Of a DNA stretch of 64,000 nt, positions 1,598 through 37,598 are shown piece by piece (the stretch's first letter is position 1; every line of letters starts with the position of its first letter). This DNA is from Candidatus Nomurabacteria bacterium (lineage in GTDB: Bacteria > Patescibacteriota > Minisyncoccia > Phycocordibacterales > UBA918): positions 26,773-90,772 of the forward strand of contig JACKGJ010000002.1 in assembly GCA_020631995.1 (NCBI GenBank), written 5' to 3'. The position numbers and the translations under genes were made by a program. The notes under the pieces were generated by a model that was not told where the DNA came from, made no database searches, and worked only from the letters and a program-made list of their open reading frames with translations.

Positions 1598-1651
1598 AAA
1601 CACAAAGACCCTTGTGTTCAGAAGTGCCAAAAGGTACTATAAGTGTCAATT

Positions 1652-3097
1652 ATGAGCACTTACAAACCAACAATTGGAATCGAGGTCCACGCCGAATTGA
1701 ACACAAAAAGTAAAATGTTCTGTTCGTGCAAGAACGATCCACATTCAAGTCAACCCAACACTAATATATGTGCAGTGTGTTTGGCTCATCCGGGAACGTT
1801 GCCACGTGTTAATTCAGAGGCTATTAAAAAAGTTTTAATTTTAGGTAAAGCAATTAATGGAGAGATTGCTGACTTTAGCGAATTCGACAGAAAACAGTAT
1901 TTTTATCCAGATATACCAAAAGCTTATCAGCTCAGTCAGTACGCATATCCTTTTGTTAAGGGAGGGAAGTTGGCAGGAGTAGAAATAACGAGGGTCCATC
2001 TAGAGGAAGATACGGCCCGAAGCGCACATACTAATGCAAATGATACTGAGCTTAATGCAAGTGGACATAGTGCAGTAGATTTCAACAGGGCAGGAGTACC
2101 ACTTATGGAGTTGGTTACAGAGCCAGTAATTCATGATGCGAACACTGCCTCTGATTTTGTTAAAGAACTACAACTCTTGCTTCGTACCCTAGGGATATCC
2201 GAGGCAAATATGGAGAAGGGTGAGATGAGAGTGGAGGCTAACATATCAATTAGTGCCACAGATCAGCTCGGAACCAAGGTAGAAGTAAAAAACCTTAATT
2301 CTTTCAAAGCTATGGCTCAGGCGATTGATTTTGAGATATCTCGTCAAGCCGAGATGTTGGACAAAAATATGCCTATAAAGCAGGAAACTCGCGGCTGGGA
2401 TGAAAATAAGTCTCGTACATTTTCACAAAGATCTAAGGAAAAGGCAGACGAATATCGTTATTTTCCTGACCCTGATATACCGAAATTCAAAATTTCTGAG
2501 ATTTCTTCATTTGGTCCAGAGAGTTTATCCAGCGCTATCCGAGATACGCCTGAGAATATAAGGAATAAGTACCGAGATATCGGTTTGACGGAAATACAGA
2601 CAGAAACTTTACTTCTGAATCCTGCACTGAGGAGCTTCTTTGAAATAGGTTTTGCTGATATACAAAGTGAAGTAAAAGGTGAAGAAGCAAGAATGGCTGC
2701 AAACTACCTAACCTCAGACGTATTAGGTCTACTGTCTACAAAAGACGAGACTTCGTTGAGCACAGAAGCCGTAGCAGGCTTCGTAAAGCTAATTGTGATG
2801 CTTCAGAAAGGGGAGATTGGCTCAAGAGTGGCTAAAGACCTACTTCCTCAGGTGCTTTTTGATCTAAAGGACCCAGAAATAATCGCAAAAGAGCAAGGTT
2901 TATTGCAATTGTCTTCTTCAGATGACCTGAAAGCCGTAATAGACAATGTTATTGAAAACAATCCGAAGGTTGTGGATGATTATAAAGCTGGAAAGGAGGC
3001 CTCTGTGCAGTATTTGGTTGGCCAGGCTATGAAAGAAACAAAGGGTTCAGCTAATCCGGCTGTCTTGCTTACCCTCTTTAAAGAAGCTTTGAAGTAA
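1652..3097 (+). CDS. gatB: Asp/Glu-tRNA(Asn/Gln) amidotransferase subunit B
   Basis: PTIGIEVHAELNTKSKMFCSCKN, CAVCLAHPGTLP, and a C-terminal GatB/YqeY domain (YLVGQAMKETKGSANP). ATG 1652 is preferred; GTG 1643 is the track alternative. Confidence 0.9.
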   Translation: MSTYKPTIGIEVHAELNTKSKMFCSCKNDPHSSQPNTNICAVCLAHPGTLPRVNSEAIKKVLILGKAINGEIADFSEFDRKQYFYPDIPKAYQLSQYAYPFVKGGKLAGVEITRVHLEEDTARSAHTNANDTELNASGHSAVDFNRAGVPLMELVTEPVIHDANTASDFVKELQLLLRTLGISEANMEKGEMRVEANISISATDQLGTKVEVKNLNSFKAMAQAIDFEISRQAEMLDKNMPIKQETRGWDENKSRTFSQRSKEKADEYRYFPDPDIPKFKISEISSFGPESLSSAIRDTPENIRNKYRDIGLTEIQTETLLLNPALRSFFEIGFADIQSEVKGEEARMAANYLTSDVLGLLSTKDETSLSTEAVAGFVKLIVMLQKGEIGSRVAKDLLPQVLFDLKDPEIIAKEQGLLQLSSSDDLKAVIDNVIENNPKVVDDYKAGKEASVQYLVGQAMKETKGSANPAVLLTLFKEALK

Positions 3098-3167
3098 GGT
3101 TTAGTTATACACAGTTAGCGGTAGTACAACGGACTACACTTGGTCCTTAATGTTATATAATTGGGCT

Positions 3168-3914
3168 ATGGAAGAAATCTCGGTTAACGGAGAAAACTAC
3201 GTAAAAGCTAGTGTATTAGCCAAGAATTTTGGCTACACCCCAGATTATATCGGACAACTCTGTCGATCCGAGCAAGTTAAGTGCACCCTGGTTGGCCGTA
3301 GTTGGTATGTTAATGAGGACTCACTCCGTGAACACAGGAAGGGTCGCTACCGAAGTAGCTCTGCCAAATCTAAGGAGCATTTGCGTAAGGCTGTAGTTAA
3401 TCAGTCATCCACAATACCTCAGTCAAAATCTTCATCTTCGTTGAAGTACGAAACAGATGAGAGGGAACTTTTTCCAGTATTAAGCAAAGCTGAAGAAAGA
3501 CATATCGATGATTCCACTGAGGATAGACTAGTATCAAATGTGGCTATAAATAAGCCTATATCGATAGCATCAGTACAAAACGAGGTTAGTACCACAGTAT
3601 CAGGGAATACCTTGGCAATACGTCGTCCTGCGCCCGTTTTACGTACTATCCCAGCCCTGCGATCCACCAAGAGCCCTATAAGAGCTAAACAGACTCCCGT
3701 ATCAAGCAAAAGTGTGTCTGTGACGAGTCGAGTGTCTACAGTGGGTACGTTCGCATTATTCTTAGGACTACTGTTAGTGGAATCAGTGCTACTGTTTGGA
3801 GTCTTGGGCTTAGAAAAGCGTCTTGTCTCTGCAGACAGTAATCAGGCTATGGTTTTGTATGGATTTGATGCAGAAAAGGTCATAGATACAGTAAGACAAA
3901 CATTTCAAAAATAA
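3168..3914 (+). CDS. membrane-tethered protein with N-terminal excisionase/MerR-like HTH and C-terminal TM helix
   Basis: Track ORF 3150-3914. HTH-like text: YVKASVLAKNFGYTPDYIGQLCRSEQVKCTLVGRSWYVNEDSL. An S/T/P-rich linker follows, then TM VGTFALFLGLLLVESVLLFGVLGL. A perfect TATAAT at 3156-3161 lies 6 nt before ATG 3168, so 3168 (MEEISVNG...) is preferred over ATG 3150. The N-terminal module is paralogous to that of the downstream giant ORF. Confidence 0.7.
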   Translation: MEEISVNGENYVKASVLAKNFGYTPDYIGQLCRSEQVKCTLVGRSWYVNEDSLREHRKGRYRSSSAKSKEHLRKAVVNQSSTIPQSKSSSSLKYETDERELFPVLSKAEERHIDDSTEDRLVSNVAINKPISIASVQNEVSTTVSGNTLAIRRPAPVLRTIPALRSTKSPIRAKQTPVSSKSVSVTSRVSTVGTFALFLGLLLVESVLLFGVLGLEKRLVSADSNQAMVLYGFDAEKVIDTVRQTFQK

Positions 3915-3935
3915 AATTATAAAAGTATAAAAGAT

Positions 3936-3959
3936 ATCCCCACATTGGGGATTTTTTTT
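3936..3959 (+). terminator. intrinsic terminator
   Basis: ATCCCC-acatt-GGGGAT hairpin followed by T8. Confidence 0.8.
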
Positions 3960-3993
3960 ATAAATTTATTCTGACATTACTATACAATTACTA

Positions 3994-6900
3994 GTGATGT
4001 CAGATAGTACAGAGCCTTCAGGCGTAGCCGCTTTGAAATCTAAAAAATTTCTTTCCGTCAAAGAGGCGGCTTCTGTTTCTTCTTATACTACTGCCCACAT
4101 AACTAGACTCGCTCAGAAGGGATTAGTCGAGGCTAAACGTGATGGTCGTCAATGGTTGATTGACCCTATTTCTCTCCAAAAATTCGTACTGGAAACAGAA
4201 GAAAAAAAGAAAGTCAGAAAGGAACAATTACGAAAGGAACGAGTGGAGGAATTACATTCTTCTAACGTTGGACAATCTTTAGACGATTCCGAGGAGAGTT
4301 TTTCTATTTTTGATTTTCAAACAGCTGTTATATCTACAGCTTTCACAGTATGTGTTGCTTTACTGTTTTCCTTAGGTGGCGCTTATGGTCAGGATGAATC
4401 AGTGGTTGCTGGTAGTACAGTAGTGTCAGGGGTAGAGAAAATGTCTAATGATTTTAAAGATAGAGTATTTCCTCGCACACGTGATCTGACAGCGACTACA
4501 CTCTTGTCTGCTCCGATTGCTAATTACTCAGGAAAAGTATTGGGATGGTTGTGGTGTGACTTTAAATTACTTTGGTACAAAAACGATAGTTGTGGTGCTC
4601 CACCTATCGAGTATGCCATTGTTCCTAGTGTAAATAATGAGGACTCTAAGGTTGAGACCAAAAATGAAAATGATGTAATTGTGTACAACACTTACATCAC
4701 TAATCCTATAGATAGAGAAGTTGTAGAGCGAGAAATTGTTCGCGAAATTTTCGTTCAGGGAGGTGAGCTCTCCTCTTTTGTCGCATATGTAACTCGCACT
4801 GAATACAATAATCAGGTCGACGCCATAATGCGCTCCATCGAAAATATCGATACTAGTAATAGTGGCGGCGGCGGAGGTGGTACTAGCAATGTCTCTTCTC
4901 TAGAGGATTTGTCAGACGTTGCTTCAATGACTGAGGCTGTTGGTAATTTGTTAGTTTGGACCGGTTCTTCTTGGTCCAACATCGCTACCTCCTCCTTGGG
5001 AATTGTGGGCACTGGTGCTGTCGACTCAGTCAACGGTCAAATCGGCGTAGTAGTACTAGACACTGGAGACATTTCAGAAAACGGTAATCTATACTTCACT
5101 GATGCACGTGCTCGCTCCACTTTATCCTCTACGGCTACTGGTCTTTCATACACTACTTCAACTGGTGTATTTAGTTTGACCAGTGGTTATGTCATCCCAT
5201 TCTCAGCTTCAACTACGCAGTGGGCTAACACTACCAACCTAGTTAACGCATCAAGTTCATCTTGGACTACTGCCTTCAATACCATCAACGCTTCTTCAAC
5301 CTTCTGGGACACTGCATACAGTTGGGGAGATCACAGTCTCGCAGGATACTTAAGCAACATTACTGGTGAATCAGTAGAAAGTCTTTCTGACGTTGCTTCA
5401 ATGACTCAAGCGACTGGTGACCTTCTGTATTGGACCGGTTCTGCTTGGAGTAACATTGCCACTTCTTCGTTGGGAATTTCCGGAGGGGGTGCAGTAGATT
5501 CTGTAAACGGTCAAACTGGCGTAGTGGTACTAGATACTGGAGACATTACAGAAAACGGTAATCTATACTTCACTAACGCTCGAGCTGATGCTCGTATTGC
5601 AGCTGGTACTTCCACTATCCGCAATATGCTCTCCGGCACATCCTCAATCGTATACAACGCTTCAACTGGTGAAATCTCATTCAACAATCCTGGATACATC
5701 ACCGGTACTGCTTGGGGAGATATTACTGGCACACTCTCTAATCAAACAGACCTCCAATTAGCTCTAGACGCTAAACTATCTACCACTACCGCAGCCAGTA
5801 CATACTACCTGGCTTCAAACCCAGCTGGATATACCACTAACACTGGTACTGTTACCTCTGTTGGCCTCACTCTACCAACTGGACTATCTGTGACTGGTTC
5901 ACCAATCACTACTTCAGGTGCATTGGCTGTTACTCTCACTAGTGGTTATGTTATTCCGCTTTCAGCTTCAACTACCGAGTGGTCAACCGCTTATGGTTGG
6001 GGAGATCACAGTCTTGCTGGTTATCTAACCTCAATCACTGGACAATCACTTGAAGACCTTAGTGATGTCGCTTCAATGACTCAAACATCTGGTGACCTTC
6101 TTTCTTGGAACGGTTCAAGCTGGACTAATGTTGCAACCTCATCCCTCGGCTTTGTTGCCACTGAATCCGATCCAATCTTCACTGCCTCAACTGCCTTCGG
6201 TATTGATAACACTGACGTAACTAACTGGAATACCGCTTACGCTTCAACCACCGCCCTCACTCCTTCATACATCCGCAACCTATTCTCTAACTCAGCTACC
6301 GGCCTCACATACAATTCATCTACCGGAGCTACTTCACTAACCGCTGGATACAGTATTCCACTCACAGCTTCAACTACTGCTTGGAACAACACTACCAACC
6401 TAGTTAACGCATCAAGTTCATCTTGGACTACTGCCTTCAATACCATCAACGCATCTTCAACCTTCTGGGACACTGCATACAGTTGGGGGAATCACGGTAT
6501 TGTTGGTTACCTAACCACTGTTGATATTAGTGATAATACTAACTTAGCTGGTGACACTGAGATTGTCCTCACTGGAGACACTCTATCAATCGCTTCATCT
6601 ATCACTCGTGATGCTGAAATAGATACAGAGTCTGAACTAGAGGCCTTCCTCACGGACGTCACTAACATCTTCACTAACAATGATGGTGCACTTAATGACG
6701 ATGACCTCTCAGATAACACCACCACTGACCTAGCAGAAGGCACTAACCAATACTTCACCACCTCACGGGCTCGCTCTGCTCTCTCTGCTGGTGCCGGCAT
6801 TACCTACGCTACCTCTACCGGTATTATTGCCTTGAATGCCACCGGCGACTGGACTGGCACCTTTGACGGTCAAGAAGGTACATACTACCTATCACGTGCT

Positions 6901-21900: not shown

Positions 21901-24900
21901 TTCACCAAACTCACTTGGTCTACTGAGCTTTTTGACACCAATAACAATTTCAATACCAGCACTAGTCGTTTTACACCAACCATAGCTGGTAAATACATTA
22001 TCAATGCTACAGCTTTGTTTACAGGATTAGGCTTTGACCAAGTGGAAATAATTACAAGCATCTATAAAAATGGAACACTTTTGTACGACAGTCCCGTCGT
22101 TAGAGGAAGTGGTGCTAACCCTCAAGGAGGTTCCGTATCGGGTATAGTTGATATGAACGGTACTACTGATTATATTGAAATTTATGTCTGGCAAAATTCA
22201 GGTTCCGCCAGGACCATTTCTGGTGCCACTACCAGCACTCATTTCTCCGGCGCCCTCATCGCTCCATCTAACGGTCTCGCTGGCGGTTGGTCTAACGACG
22301 AAACTCAGTCATATCTCGCTGACTATACAGACCTCGTCGCTATCGGTACCACTACTGCTGCTGCAAAACTAGACATCTGGGGCAGTGCTGGCTCAACAGA
22401 TATCCTTGGTATCTCTTCAAGTACCGGCACCCGCCTCCTTACCGTCTCTTCGGCCGGCAACGTTGGTATCGGTACCTCTACACCTGGTTCACTCCTCACT
22501 GTTACTGGCACCAGCACTATGGGTACCATCCTTCCTGGTGGTGCATACACCGGTAATATGTCTGCCTTTAACCTTGGAGCCTCTGCAAGCAGATGGAATG
22601 AAGTCTGGGCTGGTACATATAATGTTGGTACTTCTACTTGGTCACTCTCTGCTACTGGCCCTGACCGCTTTGGTATCTTTAGCTCAGCTAGTGCCGGTGG
22701 TACTGAAGTATTTTCTATACTACAAGGAGGGAACATTGGTATCGGTACCACTACACCGTCTGACAAACTCACCGTAGCTGGTGGTGCTACCTTTGACCAC
22801 TTCACCACTTCATCTACGACCGCCACTTCTACCATTGCTGGTAATCTTGAGGTCACTGGAAATATATCATTCACTGGTTCACTGCTCGATAGTATTGGTT
22901 CAGCTGGCTCGGCTGGTATGGTACTTCAAAGTACTGGTAGTGGTGTGCAGTGGGTAGCTACCTCATCACTTGGTATCTCTGCTGGAGGTTCGGCTGACGA
23001 TGGAGTCCTTTCACACACCTTTACCGCCTCAAGTACTTGGAACGCTATTACGTCACTTAGCGAAACATCAACTGTGCAGGTGGTACTTGATGCTTCAAAT
23101 GTAACTAACGGACAACTTATCCTCACTGTCGATGGGTCTAATGTCCTTACCACTAACGCTGGGGAAAAGAATTACCGTGTAGTGAGTGCTGATAGTTCGG
23201 TGAGTATCTCAACGAGTGAGGTTGGTTTCAGTTTTGCCACCACCACTTTTGTGGATTCGTTTAGTGTTGCATCAGATGAAAGTTCACCAAATGATGTCGT
23301 TTTCAGCAATGATGGGACAAAGATGTTTGTGTCAGGCAATGAATTTAGTGAGATTATAGAGTATCATCTCGGCACTGCCTTCGACGTCTCTACCGCCGTC
23401 TACGACAGTGGATTTTATACCGGATTTCAGGATAATTTGCCTCGTGGCTTCGCCTTCAACACTGATGGTACTAAAATGTTTGTGGTGGGTGGTGAAGGAG
23501 ATGATGTTAACGAATACACCCTCAGCACAGGCTTTGACGTCTCCACTGCCTCCTTCGTCGATTCCTTCAGTGTATCGGCACAGGAGACTGACCCATACGG
23601 CCTCGCTTTCAGTAGCGACGGTACCAAGATGTTTGTGGTTGGTAGTGTTGGGGACGATGTTAACGAATACACCCTCAGCACAGGCTTTGACGTCTCCACC
23701 GCCTCCTTCGTCGATTCCTTCAGCATCTCGGCGCAGGACACTGCTCCAACCGGCCTTGCCTTCAACACCAACGGTACCAAGATGTTTGTGATGGGCTGGA
23801 CTGGTGACGATGTCAACATATACCACCTCGGTACTGCCTTCGATGTCTCCACCGCCGTATACAACAGTGTCTTCAGTGTAGCGGCTCAGGAGACCTCACC
23901 AACTGGTATTGCCTTCAATACCAACGGTACTAAGATGTTTGTGGTAGGTCAGGCTGGTGACGACGTGAACGAATATACTCTTGGAGCTGCTTTTACATTG
24001 AATCCGACTGCTTTCGTTGACTCCTTCAGTGTATCGACACAAGAGTCTGCACCAAACGACGTTGCCTTCTCTACCGACGGCACCAAGATGTTTGTGATGG
24101 GCTGGACTGGTGACGATGTCAACGAATATAATCTAGGTACTGCCTTCGACGTCTCCACCGCCGTGTACGACAGTGTATTTTATGTCGGATCTCAGGAGGC
24201 TACACCATCTGGCCTCGCTTTCTCCACCGACGGTACCAAGATGTTTGTAACCGGATTTAGTGGTGTGGATGTCAATGAATACCACCTCGGTACCGCCTGG
24301 GACGTCTCCACTGCCGTTTATGATAGTATATTTTACGTTGGGTCGCAGGAGAGTACACCACGTGACGTTGCTTTCTCTACCGACGGCCTGAAGATGTTTA
24401 TATCAGGCGCTACAGGAATAGATATTACTGAATATAATCTCGGTGTTGCCTTCGATGTCTCCACCGCAGTCTACGATAGTGCATTCAGTGTATCGGCACA
24501 GGACACTGCACCATTTGGTCTCACTTTTTCACCAGACGGCCTCAAGATGTTTGTGGTGGGTGATACGGGAAATGATATTAATGAATATACCCTCGGCACC
24601 GCCTTCGATGTCTCCACCGCTTCATACAGTACTGTCTTCAGTGTAGCGGCTCAGGACACCACACCTCGTGGTATCGCTTTCAACACCAACGGTACTAAGA
24701 TGTTTGTGGTAGGTCAGGCTGGTGTCGACGTTAACGAATACACACTTGCTGGTCCGTTCTCCGGCACCGCCCATGCATACATCTCATATGTCGCAGAAAA
24801 CACCGGTGGAGCCGACCTGGCAGAAATGTACGCCACAGCAGAAAGTGACCTCGAAGCCGGTGACGTAGTAGCACTAGACACAGAACGTCCTGGCTACGTT

Positions 24901-25878
24901 AAGAAAGCTACCGGTATGGCGGGAGAGCGAGTAGTAGGTATCGTAGCGACTAAACCTGGTATCGTCCTAGACGACAATGCTAATGAAGGAGCACTAAAGG
25001 TACCAATAGCACTAGCAGGACGTGTACCAGTGAAGGTAACTATTGATGGCGGCGTAATAGCTATCGGTGACTTAATCACTATGGGTACTAGTACTCCTGG
25101 AGTAGCTCGTAAAGCAGAGATAGGTGACGCTGTCATTGGTTACGCTCTAGCACCATTTAGTGCAGAAGAACCAGGTACGGTTGAAGTATTTGTTAACCTA
25201 GACCTTGGTGACTCTATGATGGCGTACTACTACCAGAACGCTTCATCAACTGCTTCTTCTACTGAACCGTTCTCAGCTCACTCACTCTTTGAGCGAGTGA
25301 TAGAGCTAGCTCAGGCCTTTGTAGATGGAGTGCTTAGAATTGTGGAGATTGTGGTGCAGAAGTTGACTGTTGGTTCTGCTACACAGCCGGCTGGTGTGAC
25401 ACTCTTCGACGTTGAAACCGGTGAACCATACTGTCTCGTCATTAAGGACGGAAAGCCAGCAAGTCTTGAGGGTACTTGTGAGGAGGCTGATTTGTCACAG
25501 TACCTACCAGAGCCTGAACCAGAACCAGAACCAGAACCGGAAACTGAAACAGAAACACCAACAGAATCAGAAGAACCAACTGATACTACTCCTACCGACA
25601 CGGCCAGCACTACCGATGATGGAACTGGTACTGATACGGGTGAAGAACCAACTGATTCAGACCCTGAAGATTCTGATAACACTGGAGGAGTAGGTTCAGG
25701 CAGTGGGGGTGGCACAGAAACTCCTGAAGGCGGAGAAGACACAGACACTACGACTCCACCAACAACAGGAGAAGGGAAGTCTGAAGAACCAGCTCCAGCA
25801 CCGGAGCCTGAACCAACCTCTGAACCAACACCGGAGCCTGAGCCAGCACCAACTCCAGCACCAGCACCAGCGACATAG
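3994..25878 (+). CDS. giant (7,294 aa) membrane-anchored surface fibre protein: HTH + TM + tail-fibre-like repeats, C1q-like domain, propeller-like repeats, acidic PE/PT tail
   Basis: One uninterrupted ORF of 21,885 nt. Start is GTG 3994 or ATG 3997; TACAAT at 3983-3988 lies 8 nt before ATG 3997. The composition is strongly T/S/G/N/A-rich. Cys occurs only near the two ends. The module map is given in the sub-features and findings. All antisense ORFs inside it are composition artefacts. Confidence 0.9.
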   Translation: MMSDSTEPSGVAALKSKKFLSVKEAASVSSYTTAHITRLAQKGLVEAKRDGRQWLIDPISLQKFVLETEEKKKVRKEQLRKERVEELHSSNVGQSLDDSEESFSIFDFQTAVISTAFTVCVALLFSLGGAYGQDESVVAGSTVVSGVEKMSNDFKDRVFPRTRDLTATTLLSAPIANYSGKVLGWLWCDFKLLWYKNDSCGAPPIEYAIVPSVNNEDSKVETKNENDVIVYNTYITNPIDREVVEREIVREIFVQGGELSSFVAYVTRTEYNNQVDAIMRSIENIDTSNSGGGGGGTSNVSSLEDLSDVASMTEAVGNLLVWTGSSWSNIATSSLGIVGTGAVDSVNGQIGVVVLDTGDISENGNLYFTDARARSTLSSTATGLSYTTSTGVFSLTSGYVIPFSASTTQWANTTNLVNASSSSWTTAFNTINASSTFWDTAYSWGDHSLAGYLSNITGESVESLSDVASMTQATGDLLYWTGSAWSNIATSSLGISGGGAVDSVNGQTGVVVLDTGDITENGNLYFTNARADARIAAGTSTIRNMLSGTSSIVYNASTGEISFNNPGYITGTAWGDITGTLSNQTDLQLALDAKLSTTTAASTYYLASNPAGYTTNTGTVTSVGLTLPTGLSVTGSPITTSGALAVTLTSGYVIPLSASTTEWSTAYGWGDHSLAGYLTSITGQSLEDLSDVASMTQTSGDLLSWNGSSWTNVATSSLGFVATESDPIFTASTAFGIDNTDVTNWNTAYASTTALTPSYIRNLFSNSATGLTYNSSTGATSLTAGYSIPLTASTTAWNNTTNLVNASSSSWTTAFNTINASSTFWDTAYSWGNHGIVGYLTTVDISDNTNLAGDTEIVLTGDTLSIASSITRDAEIDTESELEAFLTDVTNIFTNNDGALNDDDLSDNTTTDLAEGTNQYFTTSRARSALSAGAGITYATSTGIIALNATGDWTGTFDGQEGTYYLSRANHTGTQLASTISDFATAADARIAAGTSTIRNMLSAGTGLSYNSGTGQFTNTGVLSIGGLTGAIATSSLHVATSTYAFTAGTSSVALALDGFNSNDYLTLAAWNATTTDALDEGSSNLYFTNARARESLSSSATGLSYATSTGVFSLTSGYVIPLSASTTAWTNFYNTPSTRITAGTNIDWTGNTLNIDTDLANYNNTSTAFIDLTDLSSLATGLTYNNTNGQFSLTSGYNIPLTASTTNWNNTYNTVTANSASWDAAAASTTALTPSYIRNLFSNSATGLTYNSSTGATSLTAGYSIPLTASTTEWSNKVSSQWTTSGSNIYYNAGKVGIGTTTPTESLHVYGSGNQRMMVETSDDGSAQFRLKNSNTEWHFEAWNNAFNFVETYAGNRLTILEGGNVGIGTTTPGSLLTVAGTANITGATTLSSTLNVTGNTTLANASSTNFTVSGNSYLGVVTSGTWNGTAIDISSYTNLGVTATGLELSGDAIVLSSGYNIPLTASTTNWNNTYNTVTANSASWDAAAASTTALTPSYIRNLFSNSATGLTYNSSTGATSLTAGYSIPLTASTTAWNNTTNLVNASSSSWTTAFNTINASSTFWDTAYSWGNHGIVGYLTTVDISDNTNLSVTATGLELSGDAIVLSSGYTIPLSASTTAWTNFYNTPSTRITAGTGLSWTGNTLNASSSADINYWTLSGSNVYRTTGNVGIGTSTPNSALTVVGNTYLSGNLTASGTLAVTGTATSTFAGGIEITGDIIPSADDVYSLGSLSRVWRDVYIGPGSLYVNGKKVIQDISDTITISTDPDQNLMSQTSGVGVITMRATGSGNANVNTGSGNINITSTSGNVNIGTSGSGQLNFGTVTTGVWHGTDIDVSDYTNLSVTATGLELSGDAIVLSSGYTIPLSASTTAWTNFYNTPSTRITAGTNIDWTGNTLNIDTDLANYNNTSTAFIDLTDLSSLATGLTYNNTNGQFSLTSGYNIPLTASTTNWNNTYNTVTANSASWDAAAASTTALTPSYIRNLFSNSATGLTYNSSTGATSLTAGYSIPLTASTTAWNNTTNLVNASSSSWTTAFNTINASSTFWDTAYSWGNHGIVGYLTNITGESLENLSDVASMTQATGDLLSWNGANWTNVATSSLGFNDHSSVTLAGSYDYLTLSGQQITLNQIDLTTDVTGVLPNANVADDITLTNITQITNRAISDTTGTLTVARGGTGATSLTGLLLGNGTSAFTATTTLSQGYGGTGIGSYTAGDLLYANSNGALEKLPIGSSGQVLKVSAGLPSWGVDQTVGEGGGGGVWATSTEFIYPQNTSNRVVIGNSATSTNNAIFEVTGISYFSNKVGIGDTSPTSLFTVGAGDAFQVTSLGVIASGTWNGTDIDISDYTNLSVTATGLELSGDAIVLSSGYNIPLTASTTNWNNTYNTVTANSASWDAAAASTTALTPSYIRNLFSNSATGLTYNSSTGATSLTAGYSIPLTASTTAWNNTTNLVNASSSSWTTAFNTINASSTFWDTAYSWGNHGIVGYLTTVDISDNTNLAGDTEIVLTGDTLSIASSITRDAEIDTESELEAFLTDVTNIFTNNDGALNDDDLSDNTTTDLAEGTNQYFTTSRARSALSAGAGITYATSTGIIALNATGDWTGTFDGQEGTYYLSRANHTGTQLASTISDFATAADARIAAGTSTIRNMLSAGTGLSYNSGTGQFTNTGVLSIGGLTGAIATSSLHVATSTYAFTAGTSSVALALDGFNSNDYLTLAAWNATTTDALDEGSSNLYFTNARARESLSSSATGLSYATSTGVFSLTSGYVIPLSASTTAWTNFYNTPSTRITAGTNIDWTGNTLNIDTDLANYNNTSTAFIDLTDLSSLATGLTYNNTNGQFSLTSGYNIPLTASTTNWNNTYNTVTANSASWDAAAASTTALTPSYIRNLFSNSATGLTYNSSTGATSLTAGYSIPLTASTTAWNNTTNLVNASSSSWTTAFNTINASSTFWDTAYSWGNHGIVGYLTTVDISDNTNLAGDTEIVLTGDTLSIASSITRDAEIDTESELEAFLTDVTNIFTNNDGALNDDDLSDNTTTDLAEGTNQYFTTSRARSALSAGAGITYATSTGIIALNATGDWTGTFDGQEGTYYLSRANHTGTQLASTISDFATAADARIAAGTSTIRNMLSAGTGLSYNSGTGQFTNTGVLSIGGLTGAIATSSLHVATSTYAFTAGTSSVALALDGFNSNDYLTLAAWNATTTDALDEGSSNLYFTNARARESLSSSATGLSYATSTGVFSLTSGYVIPLSASTTAWTNFYNTPSTRITAGTNIDWTGNTLNIDTDLANYNNTNTAFIDLTDLSSLATGLTYNNTNGQFSLTSGYNIPLTASTTNWNNTYNTVTANSASWDAAAASTTALTPSYIRNLFSNSATGLTYNSSTGATSLTAGYSIPLTASTTAWNNTTNLVNASSTFWNTAYSWGNHATQNYFDLDNAPLTVANGGTGTTTLTGLLLGNGTGAFTATTTLSSSYIEDAYVRNTGDSISGTFTLSGSAANIALGTNYISYAGGDTAFNITSGDVVRIGASGTANSTSNSGDLYVEDILEVDGASYLATVSTTGNVGIGTSVGAQRLTVSADATSDAGLFVTGGALSTIGTANANSGQILVGNSTYNASIGYDYTTYDTFIDNYSSGSFDGEIVFRTSPSTTLVAGLTLTNAGAVKVGSGGTTNYATGNGDLYVQDALEVDGTSYLTGVTNAGTFTNTGTFTLSGTAANIALGANYISYAGGDTAFNITSGDVVRIGAGTVNSASNSGDLYVQDILEVDGASYLDTVSTTGNVGIGTSVGAQRLTVSADATSDAGLFVTGGALSTIGTANANSGQILVGNSTYNASIGYDYTTYDTFIDNYSSGSFDGEIVFRTSPSTTLVAGLTLTNAGAVKVGSGGSANYATGNGDLYVQDALEVDGTSYLTGVTNAGTFTNTGTFTLSGTAANIALGANYISYAGGDTAFNITSGDVVRIGAGTVNSASNSGDLYVQDILEVDGASYLDTVSTTGNVGIGTSVGAQRLTVSADATSDAGLFVTGGALSTIGTANANSGQILIGNGSYNTSLAFDYNTFATYLDNSYTTSGGDIILRTSPAGVRTAGLTLTNAGAVKVGSGGSANYATGNGDLYVQDALEVDGTSYLTGVTNAGTFTNTGTFTLSGTAANIALGANYISYAGGDTAFNITSGDVVRIGAGTVNSASNSGDLYVQDILEVDGASYLDTVSTTGNVGIGTSVGAQRLTVSADATSDAGLFVTGGALSTIGTANANSGQILVGNSTYNASIGYDYTTYDTFIDNYSSGSFDGEIVFRTSPSTTLVAGLTLTNAGAVKVGSGGSANYATGNGDLYVQDALEVDGTSYLTGVTNAGTFTNTGTFTLSGTAANIALGANYISYAGGDTAFNITSGDVVRIGAGTVNSASNSGDLYVQDILEVDGASYLDTVSTTGNVGIGTSVGAQRLTVSADATSDAGLFVTGGALSTIGTANANSGQILIGNGSYNTSLAFDYNTFATYLDNSYTTSGGDIILRTSPAGVRTAGLTLTNAGAVKVGSGGSANYATGNGDLYVQDALEVDGTSYLTGVTNAGTFTNTGTFTLSGTAANIALGANYISYAGGDTAFNITSGDVVRIGAGTVNSASNSGDLYVQDILEVDGASYLDTVSTTGNVGIGTSVGAQRLTVSADATSDAGLFVTGGALSTIGTANANSGQILVGNSTYNASIGYDYTTYDTFIDNYSSGSFDGEIVFRTSPSTTLVAGLTLTNAGAVKVGSGGTTNYATGNGDLYVQDALEVDGTSYLTGVTNAGTFTNTGTFTLSGSAANIALGTNYISYAGGDTAFNITSGDVVRIGASGTANSTSNSGDLYVEDILEVDGASYLTGITNTGTLSNSGTLTLSGTAANIALGSNYLSGDGDDEGIYVSATGNVGIGSSTPSSKLTVQGDTWIGGNVTATGTLAVTGATTLSSTLGVTGHATLATASSTNITVSGNSYLGTVRSGTWNGTAIDISSYTNLGVTATGLSLSGDNIALTAGYNIPLTASTTNWNTAYGWGDHSSQNYFDLDSAPLTVANGGTGATSLTGLLLGNGTGAFTATTTLSSSYIDDVFLRNDGDDTTSGILTAAGFNTSGTSTLATTTISGRLGIGTENPISPLDIDGGTVPSGGKVFNLSATIPNTTSNSQYGMLLSGTGSGTGTGFSAVLRVLFNAGYTGSGANSGLSFYNNNAGTGSDLKFNVSNSTPTGNSGFVGFAGNTTIGANYGGIAEALNGNINIGMFGRANFAKNSATNIGVIGAARNTGTSPTQVGGWFTLANTTPSWESAALVADNADQTSPIFLGKDNGDTVFSIIDGGNVGIGSSTPSSKLTVQGDTWIGGSVTATGTLAVTGATTLSSTLGVTGHATLATASSTNITVSGNSYLGTVRSGTWNGTAIDISSYTNLGVTATGLSLSGDNIALTAGYNIPLTASTTAWNNTTNTVNAGASNWNTAFGWGDHSIVGYLTNIGGESFYDLADTQGAYTANRVLYQDGGGVTDSANLTFNGSLFNVIGTASSTSLVAGNASTTNLTVSGNLYVPSSIRFPSIGAASTITRAGNHALTLTSGATTNATFPSGTVTLADLGSTQTFSGAKTFSNATVALSGGTAILSFSSATGNKTISTGGSTNLILSPGGNVGIGTTNPNTKLEVSGTASSTGLQVNGNGLLTGTFGVTGHATLATASSTALTVSGKTTLANASSTSLTISGNSYLGTVSSGVWNGTAIDISSYTNLGVTATGLSLSGDNIALTAGYNIPLTASTTNWNTAYGWGDHSIVGYLTNITGQSLEDLSDVASMTQTSGDLLSWNGSSWTNVATSSLGISGGSSVFTEAGNDAYFTGGRISIGTTSTSSLLTIQASSTENVFSLLTATGANLFTVAGETTGTSTLATNLAITGNLSLSGSLYDSASSAGTSGMVLQSTGSGTTWVATSTLGITGISDGVASSSVAFSVHKNGTNQGSITSDSFTKLTWSTELFDTNNNFNTSTSRFTPTIAGKYIINATALFTGLGFDQVEIITSIYKNGTLLYDSPVVRGSGANPQGGSVSGIVDMNGTTDYIEIYVWQNSGSARTISGATTSTHFSGALIAPSNGLAGGWSNDETQSYLADYTDLVAIGTTTAAAKLDIWGSAGSTDILGISSSTGTRLLTVSSAGNVGIGTSTPGSLLTVTGTSTMGTILPGGAYTGNMSAFNLGASASRWNEVWAGTYNVGTSTWSLSATGPDRFGIFSSASAGGTEVFSILQGGNIGIGTTTPSDKLTVAGGATFDHFTTSSTTATSTIAGNLEVTGNISFTGSLLDSIGSAGSAGMVLQSTGSGVQWVATSSLGISAGGSADDGVLSHTFTASSTWNAITSLSETSTVQVVLDASNVTNGQLILTVDGSNVLTTNAGEKNYRVVSADSSVSISTSEVGFSFATTTFVDSFSVASDESSPNDVVFSNDGTKMFVSGNEFSEIIEYHLGTAFDVSTAVYDSGFYTGFQDNLPRGFAFNTDGTKMFVVGGEGDDVNEYTLSTGFDVSTASFVDSFSVSAQETDPYGLAFSSDGTKMFVVGSVGDDVNEYTLSTGFDVSTASFVDSFSISAQDTAPTGLAFNTNGTKMFVMGWTGDDVNIYHLGTAFDVSTAVYNSVFSVAAQETSPTGIAFNTNGTKMFVVGQAGDDVNEYTLGAAFTLNPTAFVDSFSVSTQESAPNDVAFSTDGTKMFVMGWTGDDVNEYNLGTAFDVSTAVYDSVFYVGSQEATPSGLAFSTDGTKMFVTGFSGVDVNEYHLGTAWDVSTAVYDSIFYVGSQESTPRDVAFSTDGLKMFISGATGIDITEYNLGVAFDVSTAVYDSAFSVSAQDTAPFGLTFSPDGLKMFVVGDTGNDINEYTLGTAFDVSTASYSTVFSVAAQDTTPRGIAFNTNGTKMFVVGQAGVDVNEYTLAGPFSGTAHAYISYVAENTGGADLAEMYATAESDLEAGDVVALDTERPGYVKKATGMAGERVVGIVATKPGIVLDDNANEGALKVPIALAGRVPVKVTIDGGVIAIGDLITMGTSTPGVARKAEIGDAVIGYALAPFSAEEPGTVEVFVNLDLGDSMMAYYYQNASSTASSTEPFSAHSLFERVIELAQAFVDGVLRIVEIVVQKLTVGSATQPAGVTLFDVETGEPYCLVIKDGKPASLEGTCEEADLSQYLPEPEPEPEPEPETETETPTESEEPTDTTPTDTASTTDDGTGTDTGEEPTDSDPEDSDNTGGVGSGSGGGTETPEGGEDTDTTTPPTTGEGKSEEPAPAPEPEPTSEPTPEPEPAPTPAPAPAT
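4039..4188 (+). other. N-terminal excisionase/MerR-type HTH module of the giant protein (aa ~16-65)
   Basis: KSKKFLSVKEAASVSSYTTAHITRLAQKGLVEAKRDGRQWLIDPISLQKF. This shows the same pattern as aa ~12-55 of the upstream protein: hydrophobic-S/K-V-x-x-A, then YT-x-x-x-I-x-x-L, then G-R-x-W. A K/E-rich helix (ETEEKKKVRKEQLRKERVEEL) follows. Confidence 0.6.
4312..4386 (+). other. single predicted TM helix of the giant protein (aa ~107-131)
   Basis: FQTAVISTAFTVCVALLFSLGGAYG is the only long hydrophobic stretch in the 7,294 aa. Positive charges lie on the N-terminal side, which implies an N-in topology with an extracellular remainder. Confidence 0.6.
6241..7812 (+). repeat. distal copy (about 1.1 units) of the 1,434-bp coding repeat
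   Basis: 6241-7812 matches 11191-12762 (offset 4,950) and 12625-14196 essentially base for base. Identical antisense ORFs at 6507/11457/12891 and 6885/11835/13269 confirm this. Confidence 0.9.
11098..14270 (+). repeat. tandem array, about 2.2 copies of a 1,434-bp (478-codon) unit
   Basis: Unit phase marker GCCTCAACCACCGCC occurs at 11191, 12625 and 14059 (period 1,434). I spotted only a few substitutions, e.g. act/acc near 12330 vs 13764 and agc/aac near 12443 vs 13877. The last copy is truncated by an apparent in-frame deletion (NASSSSWTTAFNTINASSTFW becomes NASSTFW). Confidence 0.9.
14458..18558 (+). repeat. tandem array, about 6.3 copies of a 217/216-codon unit (654, 651, 648, 651, 648, 651 bp plus a 198-bp partial)
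   Basis: The unit start ACCTTCACTCTCTCCGGC occurs at 14458, 15112, 15763, 16411, 17062, 17710 and 18361. There are two body variants: A (ILVGNSTYNASIGYDYTTYDTFIDNYSSGSFDGEIVFRTSPSTTLVAG) and B (ILIGNGSYNTSLAFDYNTFATYLDNSYTTSGGDIILRTSPAGVRTAG). Their order is A A B A B A. Units 2-6 are virtually identical at the DNA level. Unit 1 differs at synonymous sites. Confidence 0.9.
18694..19045 (+). repeat. dispersed coding duplicate, copy 1 (GNVGIGSSTPSSKLTVQGDTWIGG...GYNIPLTASTT)
   Basis: About 350 bp, near-identical to 19963-20314 (offset 1,269). A third, more divergent copy of its 3' half lies at about 21181-21320. Confidence 0.85.
19963..20314 (+). repeat. dispersed coding duplicate, copy 2
   Basis: See 18694-19045. 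The two copies bracket a unique ~900-bp segment (19060-19960) rich in G/N/T/S. Confidence 0.85.
21844..22270 (+). other. C1q/TNF-like jelly-roll domain within the giant protein
   Basis: VAFSVHKNGTNQGSITSDSFTKLTWSTELFDTNNNFNTSTSRFTPTIAGKYIINATALFTG...IITSIYKNGTLLYDS...VDMNGTTDYIEIYVWQ. The pattern is AFSV, then a property-independent F..N.. segment, then G.Y.F/I, then KNG, spread over about 140 aa. This matches C1q globular heads and the BclA C-terminal domain as I recall them. Confidence 0.5.
23248..24777 (+). repeat. ten tandem 51-codon (153-bp) degenerate repeats, beta-propeller-blade-like
   Basis: Approximate consensus: [FY]vDSFSVsaQet.P.GlAFstDGTKMFVvG..GDDVNEYtLgTAFDVSTA. I counted 10 copies by eye. 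They are divergent at the DNA level, unlike the upstream arrays. Confidence 0.75.
24778..25200 (+). other. C-terminal globular module of the giant protein (ADLAEMY...GDVV type)
   Basis: GGADLAEMYATAESDLEAGDVVALDTERPGYVKKATGMAGERVVGIVATKPGIVLDDN...IALAGRVPVKVTIDGGVIAIGDLITMG...AVIGYALAPF...GTVEVFVNL. Non-repetitive, with beta-rich text. The family assignment is uncertain. Confidence 0.35.
25507..25875 (+). repeat. low-complexity acidic Pro/Glu/Thr tail, including a (GAACCA)n-type hexanucleotide run
   Basis: PEPEPEPEPEPETETETPTESEEPTDTTPTD...EPAPAPEPEPTSEPTPEPEPAPTPAPAPAT, running to the stop codon. Confidence 0.9.
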
Positions 25879-26084: not shown

Positions 26085-26654
26085 GTGTATAATGGCTATA
26101 TGAAGCTTGATGCGCAAATAGAGGCTTTGCTTTTTTATAAAGCTGAGCCAATTAAAAAAGCAGTTTTATTAAAAACTTTAGGAGTGAAGGAGGGTGAGTT
26201 GGGCTCCGCCTTGGAGGCGCTCAAAGAGCGCCTCCAAGGCGGAGCGACCGCACTCCTCGTAACTGAGGAGGAGGTGTCATTAGTGGTGGCCCCAGAATTT
26301 GATGAGCTTATTGATAGTACTCGCAAGGAAGAAATGAAGCGTGGTATTGGTAAGGCCGGGGCAGAAACCTTGGCAATTGTGATGTATCGAGGGCCCATTA
26401 CCCGCGTGGAGATTGATCGAGTGCGTGGCGTAAACTCCTCATATATATTACGTAATCTGGAAATACGCGGTTTGGTAGAGAGGAGGATGGGGAAGCGACA
26501 GAACGAGTTTGTTATTACCACTGAACTTTTGCGTCATTTGGGGATACGGGAAAAAACTGAAATGCCAGATTATGCTAAGGTACTTAACGCGTTGGAAGCT
26601 TTCGAGAGTAGTGCTTTTGAAAATGACGAATCTCCGCGTCAGGCTACGGAATAA
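26085..26654 (+). CDS. scpB: segregation and condensation protein B
   Basis: EALLFYKAEPIKKAVLLKTLG and GKAGAETLAIVMYRGPITRVEIDRVRGVNSSYILRNLEIRGLV. SD GAGGAG at 26074-26079 lies 5 nt before GTG 26085. Confidence 0.85.
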   Translation: MYNGYMKLDAQIEALLFYKAEPIKKAVLLKTLGVKEGELGSALEALKERLQGGATALLVTEEEVSLVVAPEFDELIDSTRKEEMKRGIGKAGAETLAIVMYRGPITRVEIDRVRGVNSSYILRNLEIRGLVERRMGKRQNEFVITTELLRHLGIREKTEMPDYAKVLNALEAFESSAFENDESPRQATE

Positions 26655-36068: not shown

Positions 36069-37103
36069 ATGTTCTCTAAGTCCCTCCATACTTTCCCCTC
36101 ACCTATGAATGACAAAAAAGAAACAACAGAAGTTACTGAAACCTTAAAGACTGCTAAATTTGCCGTCCTCCCCCACGTGTCTCATTTTCTGACTTCAATC
36201 CTGGCCAATAATTATTCCAGTAAAACTCACGATTCATATAAACGTGACCTTTTGACCTTTGATCGGTTTTTGGCCTCTGAAATGGGACATATTACCTTCA
36301 GTGAGATAGATAAGCACGTTATAGAGCTTTTTAAGGCTTATTTGAACTCCGATGACCGGCACACGACACTTAATACTAAAGTTCCAGAGCGTCGTCTTAA
36401 AAGCGGTTCTGTGAATCGAATGTTGTCGTCACTGCGTCGATATTTTGCGTATTTGATCGATATGGACTACGAGTCGCCGCTTGCACCAACTGCAATCAAA
36501 CTCGTGCGGGCTGAAAAAAAGCATGGACAAGTTGCTGAATTGCATGAATTAATTTCGCTGATTGAGTCACCAACTAAGTTTGAAAAAAATAAATTTGTGG
36601 CCACGCGTAATCGTGCGATGCTTGAGACCTTATTAGCAAGCGGAATGCGTATTTCTGAGCTTCTAGGGCTCAGACTTAATCAACTTGATAAGTCAGGTCG
36701 TATTTTTATTGAAGGAAAAGGTAAAAAGCAGCGCTTTATATATTTAACTGAGCGTGCAAGGCGACATATAGATGATTATCTCAAATTAAGAGTAGACGAC
36801 CTTCCCTATTTATTTATTCCAAAAAGAGGCCAGAATGCTGGAGAAAAAAACAAACGCATTTCTTCCAATTACCTCCAAATGAAGATTAAAAAGTATCGGG
36901 AGCTTCTTGGTATTAATGTGCCAACCTCTGCTCACTCGCTACGTCACGGCTTCGCCACTTACTTGGCTGAACAAGGTGCCAACCCAGCCGCTATTCAGGT
37001 GCTTTTAGGACACGAGTCGCTCGATACTACCACTCGATACGTTCATGCATCAGATCGTTACGCTGAAGAAACTCATCGTAAGTTTCATCCGCTTGGAAAG
37101 TAA
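36069..37103 (+). CDS. tyrosine recombinase, XerC/XerD family
   Basis: ASGMRISELLGLRLNQL (Arg), IEGKGKKQRFIYL (Lys), HSLRHGFATYLAEQG (HxxR), LLGHESLDTTTRYVH (His and Tyr). An N-terminal SAM-like core-binding domain is present. Confidence 0.85.
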   Translation: MFSKSLHTFPSPMNDKKETTEVTETLKTAKFAVLPHVSHFLTSILANNYSSKTHDSYKRDLLTFDRFLASEMGHITFSEIDKHVIELFKAYLNSDDRHTTLNTKVPERRLKSGSVNRMLSSLRRYFAYLIDMDYESPLAPTAIKLVRAEKKHGQVAELHELISLIESPTKFEKNKFVATRNRAMLETLLASGMRISELLGLRLNQLDKSGRIFIEGKGKKQRFIYLTERARRHIDDYLKLRVDDLPYLFIPKRGQNAGEKNKRISSNYLQMKIKKYRELLGINVPTSAHSLRHGFATYLAEQGANPAAIQVLLGHESLDTTTRYVHASDRYAEETHRKFHPLGK

Positions 37104-37120
37104 CGAAATTATGATTAGAC

Positions 37121-37155
37121 AAAACAAAAACTCCCAAAAGGGAGTTTTTGTTTTG
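37121..37155. terminator. bidirectional intrinsic terminator
   Basis: CAAAAACTCCC-aaaa-GGGAGTTTTTG flanked by an A-run and a T-run. It serves the recombinase (+) and the convergent small ORF (-). Confidence 0.8.
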
Positions 37156-37169
37156 AATTAAATTTCTAA

Positions 37170-37283
37170 CTAGCCTTCACAACTGACACACGTTGATTCA
37201 CCGGCAAAATGAACGCGAGGTTTAGCTGCTGCGGCACCTTCTACAGCTGGTAGTTCGAAGTTGAATTCATTTGTGTTTTGCAT
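37170..37283 (-). CDS. 37-aa peptide ORF candidate (Cys/Ser/Thr-containing C-terminus)
   Basis: MQNTNEFNFELPAVEGAAAAKPRVHFAGESTCVSCEG. It ends 15 nt before the bidirectional terminator. No convincing SD or -35 was seen. Below the track cutoff. Confidence 0.25.
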   Translation of the reverse strand: MQNTNEFNFELPAVEGAAAAKPRVHFAGESTCVSCEG

Positions 37284-37387
37284 GACTTATATTTTAACAT
37301 TTTGAGCCAGGACCGCGATGTGTATAACTAGTCTACATTATTACGGCTATAGATAAAGATTTATTTGACCCCGCTCCCCCACCAAAC

Positions 37388-37415
37388 TTGACAATATTTT
37401 AGGCAGTGTTATTTT
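37388..37415 (+). promoter_or_regulatory. sigma70-type promoter (TTGACA-N16-TATTTT)
   Basis: Perfect -35 TTGACA at 37388-37393 and -10 TATTTT at 37410-37415. Confidence 0.55.
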
Positions 37416-37421
37416 AATGGA

Positions 37422-37537
37422 GTAATTTGTTCTTGTTGAGTCCCCGAGAGAGTGGCTGGTCCCCGTTGCCCCGCCAAACCAACTGCTCTCCCCTGCCCCC
37501 AAGATTTTCCTAGGAAAATCTTGGGGGCTTTTCTTTT
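37422..37537 (+). ncRNA. candidate ~115-nt C-rich small RNA, delimited by its own promoter and terminator
   Basis: Only a 2-codon ORF follows the promoter. The body is GAGTCCCCGAGAGAGTGGCTGGTCCCCGTTGCCCCGCCAAACCAACTGCTCTCCCCTGCCCCC. It ends in a perfect 32-nt palindrome plus a T-tract. It matches no RNA family I recognise. Confidence 0.35.
37496..37537 (+). terminator. strong intrinsic terminator
   Basis: CCCCCAAGATTTTCCTAGGAAAATCTTGGGGG (perfect palindrome, 37496-37527) followed by CTTTTCTTTT. Confidence 0.85.
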
Positions 37538-37598
37538 AGTACATATCTCTTTCTAAAAAAACTGCAAATATAAAAATATTATTGTTACAATTGCTTGA

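Follow-up and report, generated by a model that had tools for sequence, protein, structure and literature searches.

ToxR/TcpP, CadC and VtrA/VtrC combine an N-terminal cytoplasmic winged helix-turn-helix (HTH) with a single transmembrane (TM) helix and an external domain, and the gene of a partner lies next to theirs; co-component systems of this type signal from outside to inside without a kinase (PMC9214523). The 64,000-nucleotide stretch of DNA analysed here (the window; Candidatus Nomurabacteria bacterium, contig JACKGJ010000002.1, positions 26,773 to 90,772 of the forward strand) comes from a genome of the Patescibacteria, or Candidate Phyla Radiation (CPR), and contains a gene pair with the same layout. 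Gene A encodes a small protein and the gene directly behind it a giant of 7,293 residues, and the N-terminal domains of the two proteins (their heads) are, by family profile and predicted fold, homologous winged HTHs. The giant belongs through its head to a second family, B, whose members follow A in nearly every related genome. In the ToxR/CadC type the head is an OmpR-type winged HTH (Trans_reg_C) and the partner has no HTH (PMC9214523), whereas here both partners carry a head of the HTH_17 type and Pfam scans of the heads gave no match to Trans_reg_C. The external part also differs, being 34 residues in A and 7,166 in the giant.

The same two helices and beta-hairpin wing are found in the excisionases Xis and RdfS and in Streptomyces BldC (PF12728, TIGR01764; Foldseek probability 0.95-0.99, root mean square deviation (rmsd) 1.5-2.9 Å). 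The known members of this excisionase/HTH_17 group are small and soluble, while here the domain stands at the N-terminal end of proteins that cross the membrane once, some of them giants with thousands of residues. Xis and BldC form head-to-tail multimers on DNA, which the paired and tandem heads described below recall. RodZ shares with the pair the order of HTH, basic juxtamembrane helix, TM helix and external C-terminal domain, and a housekeeping context too, but has an Xre-type HTH (HTH_25) and DUF4115, neither of which Pfam detected in A, in B or in the head of the giant. In RacA of B. subtilis and in MerR-family proteins a MerR-like winged HTH leads into a long helix, as here, and GlnR and CbpM are among the fold matches of the giant head. 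These proteins, however, lack a TM helix (RacA is anchored via DivIVA), and neither MerR nor MerR_1 of Pfam matches the window proteins, which contain no effector domain and have a long helix that is ER/K-rich or basic rather than of the hydrophobic-heptad kind.

Giant surface proteins of the kind found in the window have reportedly been seen in CPR bacteria in a study of Vampirococcus. The giants of CPR and Omnitrophota, ultra-small bacteria, treated in a preprint on giant genes are likewise very large, repeat-rich, probably extracellular and thought to mediate attachment (10.1101/2023.11.21.568195). Those of Omnitrophota have many TM helices and SecA-like domains, unlike the giant of the window, and neither 'helix-turn-helix' nor 'HTH' occurs in the preprint. 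Our searches of the open-access literature turned up no account of CPR proteins that join an HTH_17 domain to a membrane anchor, of the A-B pair or of HTH-headed giants.

Two homologous heads in a conserved gene pair

The features of the pair, and the two genes upstream of it, are listed here with window coordinates and strand.

551-1597, + strand: obg
1643-3097, + strand: gatB
3168-3914, + strand: gene A, 248 residues, with winged HTH head, basic helix, disordered linker, TM helix and 34-residue external tail
3168-3347, + strand: head of A (residues 1-60), a beta-beta-alpha-alpha-beta-beta winged HTH running into helix 50-80 (AlphaFold2 (AF2) model, predicted local distance difference test (pLDDT) 89-97)
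3447-3476, + strand: linear motif Y-E-x-D-x-x-x-L-x-P of family A, residues 94-103 (YETDERELFP), from the family A alignment
3738-3809, + strand: TM helix of A (residues 191-214), its only hydrophobic helix (AF2 helix, hydrophobicity)
3810-3911, + strand: external C-terminal tail of A, 34 residues, a predicted beta-hairpin plus helix (AF2 pLDDT 88-95; pattern conserved in the A alignment)
3994/3997-25878, + strand: giant gene, 7,293 residues from the ATG at 3997
3997-25878, + strand: layout of the giant, with a head of the B type, a helix rich in ER/K, a single TM helix and 7,166 residues of ectodomain
4045-4194, + strand: head of the giant (residues about 17-66), a B-type winged HTH (AF2 pLDDT 94-97; 68 bits with the B-head model)
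4165-4269, + strand: long charged helix (residues 57-91), EEKKKVRKEQLRKERVEEL, between head and membrane (AF2)
4315-4377, + strand: TM helix of the giant (residues 107-127), an uncleaved signal anchor (AF2, hydrophobicity)
23443-24740, + strand: 8.5 tandem copies of a 153-nt (51-residue) unit of beta-propeller-blade type, near the C-terminus of the giant

Compared directly, the two heads give a marginal score (BLASTP, 23.5 bits, E = 0.003 for a single comparison), and it is the family profiles that place them in one family. A hidden Markov model (HMM) of the A head scores 18.3 bits on the giant head (E = 3.8e-4 among 5,476 open reading frames, ORFs) and also detects, at 30-69 bits, a second head gene immediately behind A at almost all loci. 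The B-head HMM built from these downstream heads gives 55.8 bits with A of the window and 68 bits with the giant. When the A and B/giant profiles are aligned to each other by hhalign the probability is 99.7 % (E = 2e-25, 55 columns), and 99.3 % in a second run (E = 8e-21, 54 columns). The two consensus sequences, G..YVKAS..AK..GYT.DYIGQLCR..KV.A.LVGRSWYV for A and ..I..K.AA...GYT.DYISRLAREGKI.A.QIGRQWFV for B, are nearly superimposable. On this profile evidence the heads of A and the giant are homologous. The first 320 residues of the giant match stand-alone B proteins in phmmer at E = 1e-19 to 3e-25, the matches spanning HTH, helix and TM segment, against 18 bits with A, and by this comparison the giant's head is therefore of the B type.

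AF2 models built on the family alignments give both heads (pLDDT at least 90) a common core of alpha-alpha-beta-beta-long alpha, in which two helices and a beta-hairpin wing make up a winged-helix fold; the A model has two extra N-terminal strands. In A the strands lie at residues 3-6 and 9-13, the helices at 14-21 and 25-33, the wing strands at 39-42 and 45-49 and the long helix at 50-80, while the giant has helices at 21-27 and 32-41, strands at 46-49 and 52-55, and helices at 57-91 and 107-127, the last being the TM helix. The best Foldseek matches, ranked by probability and TM-score with weak E-values of about 0.1-0.4 as expected for 45-residue domains, were Pukovnik Xis 4j2n (probability 0.99, rmsd 1.8 Å), BldC 6ama and RdfS 8dgl for A, and Pukovnik Xis (probability 0.97, rmsd 1.5 Å), RdfS, GlnR and CbpM for the giant. 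Among 46 head fragments of the family, 28 match Pfam HTH_17 at E <= 0.01 (best 1.1e-8), and a short B-like protein (B') from locus L007 reaches 33.5 bits, above the cut-off. Since 28 of the 46 fragments match this family while the two heads of the window stay below the cut-offs, the head family is a divergent branch of the excisionase/HTH_17 (MerR-type) winged HTHs.

An excisionase-like HTH at both N-termini had been noted in the original prediction, and profiles and predicted folds now agree on it; profile searches put the two N-termini in one family rather than in unrelated ones, and the two peptides quoted from them are present as written. The small protein, there given 249 residues, has 248 plus a stop codon. 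A single TM segment was correctly called in each protein, and the ectodomain sizes of about 35 and about 7,100 residues come to 34 and 7,166.

The start of gene A is at 3168 and not at 3150, because its homologues begin MEEIS. The protein is identical to a database entry named 'hypothetical protein H6788_01850 [Candidatus Nomurabacteria bacterium]', and its 101 homologues, of 240-430 residues, are highly conserved over the N-terminal 60 residues. Y94 is invariant and P103 nearly so in the family alignment. The motif between them looks like a docking peptide for some partner, and it also follows the tandem heads of the relatives P0141, P0145 and P0149. In A and its homologues this Y-E-x-D-x-x-x-L-(F/L)-P stretch is acidic-hydrophobic and stands in an otherwise disordered linker.

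The helix between head and membrane is conserved in family B as a stretch rich in K, R and E. Thr, Ser, Gly, Ala and Asn are abundant in the giant's ectodomain behind the TM helix, and no second hydrophobic segment was found in the protein beyond helix 107-127. A cleavable signal peptide at this helix (site AYG|Q) was considered and rejected: cleavage by signal peptidase is unlikely because the homologues from loci L001 and L003 do not keep the A-x-G motif that follows the helix. The heads are taken to be cytoplasmic because signal peptides are lacking, because the ectodomain has an extracellular type of composition and because the large proteins encoded separately in other loci (class II, below) do carry a signal peptide. 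A Pfam scan of the whole giant in two halves gave nothing useful, and a scan of its C-terminal 999 residues gave weak propeller matches (SGL 30.4 bits; a Kelch-type model below its cut-off). The propeller repeats are followed, at window 25400-25875, by a conserved region ADLAEMY...GDVV...PVKV, which is also present in P0145, and then by a Pro/Glu/Thr-rich tail. The homologue in L001 has C1q-like and Peptidase_S74 (tail-fibre chaperone) domains, which are absent from the giant of the window. A word-indexed search with the first 288 residues of the giant returned one fragment only, despite homologues in L001-L004, which reflects the sensitivity limit of such a search rather than absence.

To see how far the pair is kept we used a scan of one genome per species, which found 401 loci encoding a relative of A; 80 of these were fetched, and 77 could be assessed for a B gene after A once duplicate contigs had been removed. 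A gene with a B-type head follows A on the same strand, at a distance of -12 to +685 nt, in 76 of the 77 loci, the sole exception being L045. As obg and gatB stand upstream of A almost everywhere, the order obg, gatB, A, B on one strand is common to the window and to these 76 Paceibacteria loci. Judged from gene order and sequence, A and B are two old paralogue families whose gene pair is fixed behind obg-gatB across Paceibacteria. The synteny thus bears out the original prediction in treating the two genes as a conserved module rather than as chance neighbours.

Three architectures can be distinguished by what happens to B. In class II, the majority, B stands alone with 156-293 residues (about 240 typically), arranged as head, K/R/E-rich helix, TM segment around residue 100 and roughly 130 external residues, and its C-terminus carries the conserved pattern FSDxVxV...TGxxxPxF...YRFLMVPV. 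At 40 class II loci a large protein (>1,300 residues) with a classical signal peptide starts -4 to +9 nt after B. Its mature N-terminus is conserved (INYQGKLTD..G..V.DG.Y.M.F.LYT), and LVIVD repeats are present in the large proteins of L077 and L014, the two that were scanned with Pfam. By this spacing B and the downstream large protein are translationally coupled in most relatives. The C-terminal motif of B and the INYQGKL N-terminus of the next protein, found for example at L033 7153-7890 and from L033 7892 onward, form a possible strand-exchange or docking pair. Other proteins follow B in seven class II loci, six of them pilin-like and about 235 residues long. In class I, with nine loci (the window, L001, L003, L009, L010, L013, L021, L061 and L066), head, helix and TM segment are joined directly to the large protein, so that the window has no separate B gene and its B head, charged helix and TM helix form one chain with the giant ectodomain. 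Class III (L006, L007 and L022) has A, the short B', signal peptidase I and a giant with a third, more divergent type of head (W.PL.EAA.FTPYSAEYLSLLARKGR) and a TM helix at residues 150-240. The genes between B' and the giant of class III are:

L006 7380-7940 and L007 7360-7905: signal peptidase I (Pfam S26)
L022 7347-7868: a 173-residue ORF at the signal peptidase position, assigned by position, the Pfam scan having covered L006 and L007

When the A proteins are clustered by the unweighted pair group method with arithmetic mean (UPGMA), the window groups with L001, L003, L006-L011, L013 and L022, while three of the fused loci, L021, L061 and L066, are placed between those of class II. Because fused loci occupy at least three separate places in this clustering, fusion of head and giant (or fission) has happened more than once, although the direction of the change is read from UPGMA clustering and not from a rigorous phylogeny. 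The head-bearing giant of the window is a lineage-specific fusion.

The family extends well beyond these loci. An exhaustive HMMER search with a 55-position head profile against 1.84 billion representative proteins (clusters at 50 % identity) gave 10,308 matches at E <= 1e-3, 5,164 at E <= 1e-10 and 355 at E <= 1e-30. The top matches have two heads in tandem (about residues 8-60 and 84-136), followed by a Y..DE..L.P motif and a TM helix. In P0145 and P0150 (about 1,690 residues; loci L085 and L087) two A-type heads, the motif and a TM helix lead into a giant ectodomain, and the P0145 gene in L085 lies directly behind obg-gatB without a separate A or B. In L086 the order is gatB, a tandem-head A and a B head fused to a protein of at least 668 residues. 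Either paralogue can carry a giant ectodomain, because A-type and B-type heads are both found fused. These 'Rosetta-stone' fusions are the strongest argument that A, B and a large surface protein would form one system. The source names in eight top clusters are 'hypothetical protein' or missing and refer to Patescibacteria or Minisyncoccia; one B-family protein is labelled 'helix-turn-helix domain-containing protein'. Tandem heads are present in many members of the family (P0141-P0290; L085 8001-13079, L086 4364-5353, L087 6001-11100), and a divergent gene for a small, soluble MerR-family protein of 79 residues lies just upstream of the two-head giant at L085 and L087.

Shared elements upstream of the two genes

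The regions before A and the giant contain the following elements.

3105-3113, + strand: DnaA-box-like 9-mer TTATACACA, starting 63 nt before the ATG of A (position weight matrix, PWM)
3154-3161, + strand: -10-like box TATATAAT, 6 nt before the ATG of A (by sequence)
3934-3942, + strand: degenerate box ATATCCCCA, starting 63 nt before the giant ATG and overlapping the 5' arm of the terminator stem (PWM)
3936-3960, + strand: hairpin ATCCCCACATTGGGGAT (3936-3952) followed by T8, like an intrinsic terminator, after gene A
3971-4003, + strand: imperfect inverted repeat CTGACAT-tactaTACAATtactagtg-ATGTCAG, bracketing the -10-like box and including the start codon (by sequence)
3981-3988, + strand: TATAAT-like box TATACAAT, 8 nt before the giant ATG (by sequence)

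The 9-mer, which we take to correspond to the DnaA-box consensus TTATNCACA, thus starts at an identical 63 nt before both genes. At the place of the giant's degenerate copy the relatives carry TTATCCCCA, TTGTCCACA or TTATTAACA, and across the loci the variants TTATCCCCA, TTGTCCACA, TTATCCACA, TTATACACA and TTATTAACA occur some 55-80 nt upstream of the start codon of B or the giant, the same element being present before A. In the 110 nt upstream, the PWM matched with 8 bits or more for 32 of 80 A genes (40 %), 63 of 75 B genes (84 %) and 11 of 389 other genes (2.8 %); the matrix was built from the B instances, so that the B percentage is circular and the independent figures are those for A and for other genes. 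Eight other genes have the strict box pattern, and four of them code for the small pilin-like surface proteins that at some loci come after B. The window contains eight strict boxes against a shuffle mean of 14, and five of the eight lie outside every ORF of at least 120 residues, including all three perfect copies of TTATCCACA. The box is often in or beside the terminator hairpin of the upstream gene.

A terminator between the two genes and a -10 element for each had been proposed before. The hairpin and its run of eight T residues were found, and so were the TATAAT-like boxes before both ATGs; the sigma-70 scan called neither box because no -35 element is present. A TATAAT/TATACT-like box stands in the same place upstream of most of the related A and B genes inspected, as judged by eye and uncounted. 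Neither the ATG of A nor that of the giant has a visible Shine-Dalgarno sequence in front of it, and for that reason the mRNA of A is probably leaderless or has a very short leader.

Inverted repeats comparable to that before the giant (score at least 8) are present in 47 % of B upstream regions and in 3.5 % of shuffles. They have arms of 10-18 nt around the TATAAT-like box and end 0-7 nt before the B ATG (for example in L015, L026, L033 and L058), and a Shine-Dalgarno sequence is not visible there either. The arm sequences are lineage-specific while their complementarity is kept, and 18 G.T against 10 A.C mismatches were counted in the arms. The repeat could be a DNA operator over a leaderless promoter or an RNA hairpin in the 5' untranslated region.

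Several loci have unusual sequence between A and B. AT-rich gaps of 280-720 nt with no convincing ORF separate the two genes in L010, L012, L016, L017, L019, L020, L023-L025, L027-L029, L031, L036-L042, L044, L048, L050, L059, L061, L063, L066, L067, L080 and L083. Conservation in these gaps is confined to the last ~100 nt next to B, and in the 12 loci scanned no Rfam match reached the gathering threshold for an RNA gene. The sequence between A and the giant in L003 and L004 was considered as a recombination remnant of two HTHs and turned out to be a simple tandem duplication of ~520 bp whose junction is arbitrary. The duplicated segment runs from the 3' end of A across the intergenic region into the giant head, of which it takes in the first ~35 codons (L003 10733-11351, L004 10733-11353), so that a defunct copy of the start of the head is left; in L003 a run of N marks an assembly gap there. 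Elsewhere in the window, a tyrosine recombinase of the phage integrase family and an N6/N4 DNA methylase (36069-38396) adjoin perfect TTATCCACA and TTATACACA boxes (35957, 37319), and this region may be a small mobile or defence island.

Possible roles of the heads

The homology of the heads, their fold, the conserved pair and the repeated fusions, taken as the evolutionary and structural part of our interpretation, we regard as very likely. The combined model, in which A and B make up a membrane-tethered, probably DNA-binding module in the cytoplasm that belongs to a system for anchoring surface proteins or for signalling, we hold with moderate confidence. A and B would form the cytoplasm-facing, membrane-embedded base of such a system, with B as the tether of the large surface protein, through a covalent link in the giant of the window and without one in most lineages. 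The two winged HTH heads would act jointly inside the cell, most probably on DNA, and the genes of A and of B or the giant would be co-regulated via the shared 9-mer at -63, for which the heads themselves are candidate binders and DnaA an alternative. The whole would then be a membrane-tethered regulator linking a giant adhesin or fibre to gene expression. The evidence that the heads may bind DNA is indirect, namely the shared 9-mer at -63 of both genes.

Several points count against this model, in addition to the circular B percentage and the UPGMA-based direction of fusion given above. The core of the A head is slightly acidic, as counted from its sequence, and its recognition helix has an Asp (D26) that is invariant in the family alignment. 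The giant head scores 18.1 bits with HTH_17 (PF12728), for which the cut-off is 27, and is likewise below the cut-off of TIGR01764 (28.8), while A has no match to HTH_17 or TIGR01764 in Pfam and NCBIfam scans. Searches of PDB sequences with phmmer, using either head, and with the A-head profile gave no match, which leaves the heads without a sequence-level tie to a solved DNA-binding protein. The -63 box could be bound by DnaA or another factor instead of the heads, and both the interaction of A with B and the tethering of the large protein by B are inferred from adjacency and fusions only.

Of the competing explanations, a role in protein-protein contacts survives best and is one that we take seriously, although it is rather less than likely. 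The HTH would here grip a cytoplasmic partner (cytoskeleton, divisome, Sec machinery, or the other head), A and B would be RodZ-like envelope or morphogenesis proteins, and the giant would have borrowed the module as an anchor. The invariant acidic residue in the 'recognition' helix and the docking-like YExDxxxLxP of A fit this view, as does the layout of B (HTH, basic helix, TM helix and ~130 external residues), which is that of RodZ. The near-universal A-B pair would suit a core cell function, and the neighbours are housekeeping and envelope genes: secA, murB, obg, gatB and scpB, and those for a D-Ala-D-Ala carboxypeptidase and a GT4 transferase, of which the following lie downstream of the giant gene in the window.

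26085-26654, + strand: scpB, just downstream of the giant gene
after scpB in gene order, + strand: D-Ala-D-Ala carboxypeptidase, then GT4 transferase

The type of HTH is nevertheless unlike that of RodZ, with matches to HTH_17 and none to HTH_25 or DUF4115, and the closest folds are all DNA binders. The tandem heads of the wider family moreover resemble the head-to-tail DNA-binding arrays of Xis and BldC.

An unlikely variant of DNA binding is that the giant head acts as an anchor in cis on its own promoter. The nascent first 66 residues would fold into the winged HTH and bind the -63 box of their own leaderless promoter while the TM helix inserts, so that the 22-kb gene would be pinned to the translocon while 7,166 residues are exported co-translationally, and the promoter would be shut (autoregulation). 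A, with the same kind of head and the same box, would set a threshold or relay the state. If true, this would give a single-pass route from the giant host-contact fibre of an episymbiont direct to DNA.

A tether between chromosome and membrane in the manner of RacA or Noc, holding defined chromosomal sites at the membrane with little transcriptional role, we consider quite unlikely. A MerR/Xis-type winged HTH leading into a long helix is the design of RacA; the ER/K helix could serve as a spacer of ~5 nm, scpB is the next gene downstream and DnaA-box-like sites are present in the locus. The box is, however, enriched before A, B and the pilin-like genes at a fixed promoter-proximal distance, which indicates gene regulation rather than scattered anchoring, and the strict boxes of the 64-kb window are fewer than the shuffled expectation.

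The original prediction proposed that the small protein could be a head-only paralogue that competes or partners with the giant at the same DNA or protein target. One reading of this makes the small protein a decoy derived from the giant, in competition with the giant head. The heads are homologous, the genes adjacent and each is preceded by a promoter-like region, yet we find this very unlikely, as the giant head is far closer to B than to A and the two families coexist in 76 of 77 loci whether the giant is fused or not. A is, moreover, a family of its own rather than a reduced copy of the giant, with its own motif, its TM helix close to the C-terminal end and a 34-residue tail that is conserved and folded. 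Chance resemblance of two unrelated neighbouring HTH proteins, which the marginal pairwise score and the huge size of the HTH_17 superfamily might suggest, is refuted to the point of near impossibility by the hhalign E-values, the conserved adjacency and the shared box at the same 63 nt.

Patescibacteria are thought to live attached to other cells, and giant surface proteins are prime candidates for making that contact. The head family is very large and unannotated, places a domain of DNA-binding type on the cytoplasmic side of single-pass membrane proteins, and recurs as a fixed two-gene pair that has repeatedly been fused to giant ectodomains. Domains of about 60 residues, a 9-mer box and a defined gene pair offer a testable handle on how the giants of CPR bacteria are anchored and possibly linked to gene expression. 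If the heads do bind DNA, regulators tethered to the membrane in this way would be of a new type, and in organisms with few classical signalling systems they might connect host contact directly with transcription.

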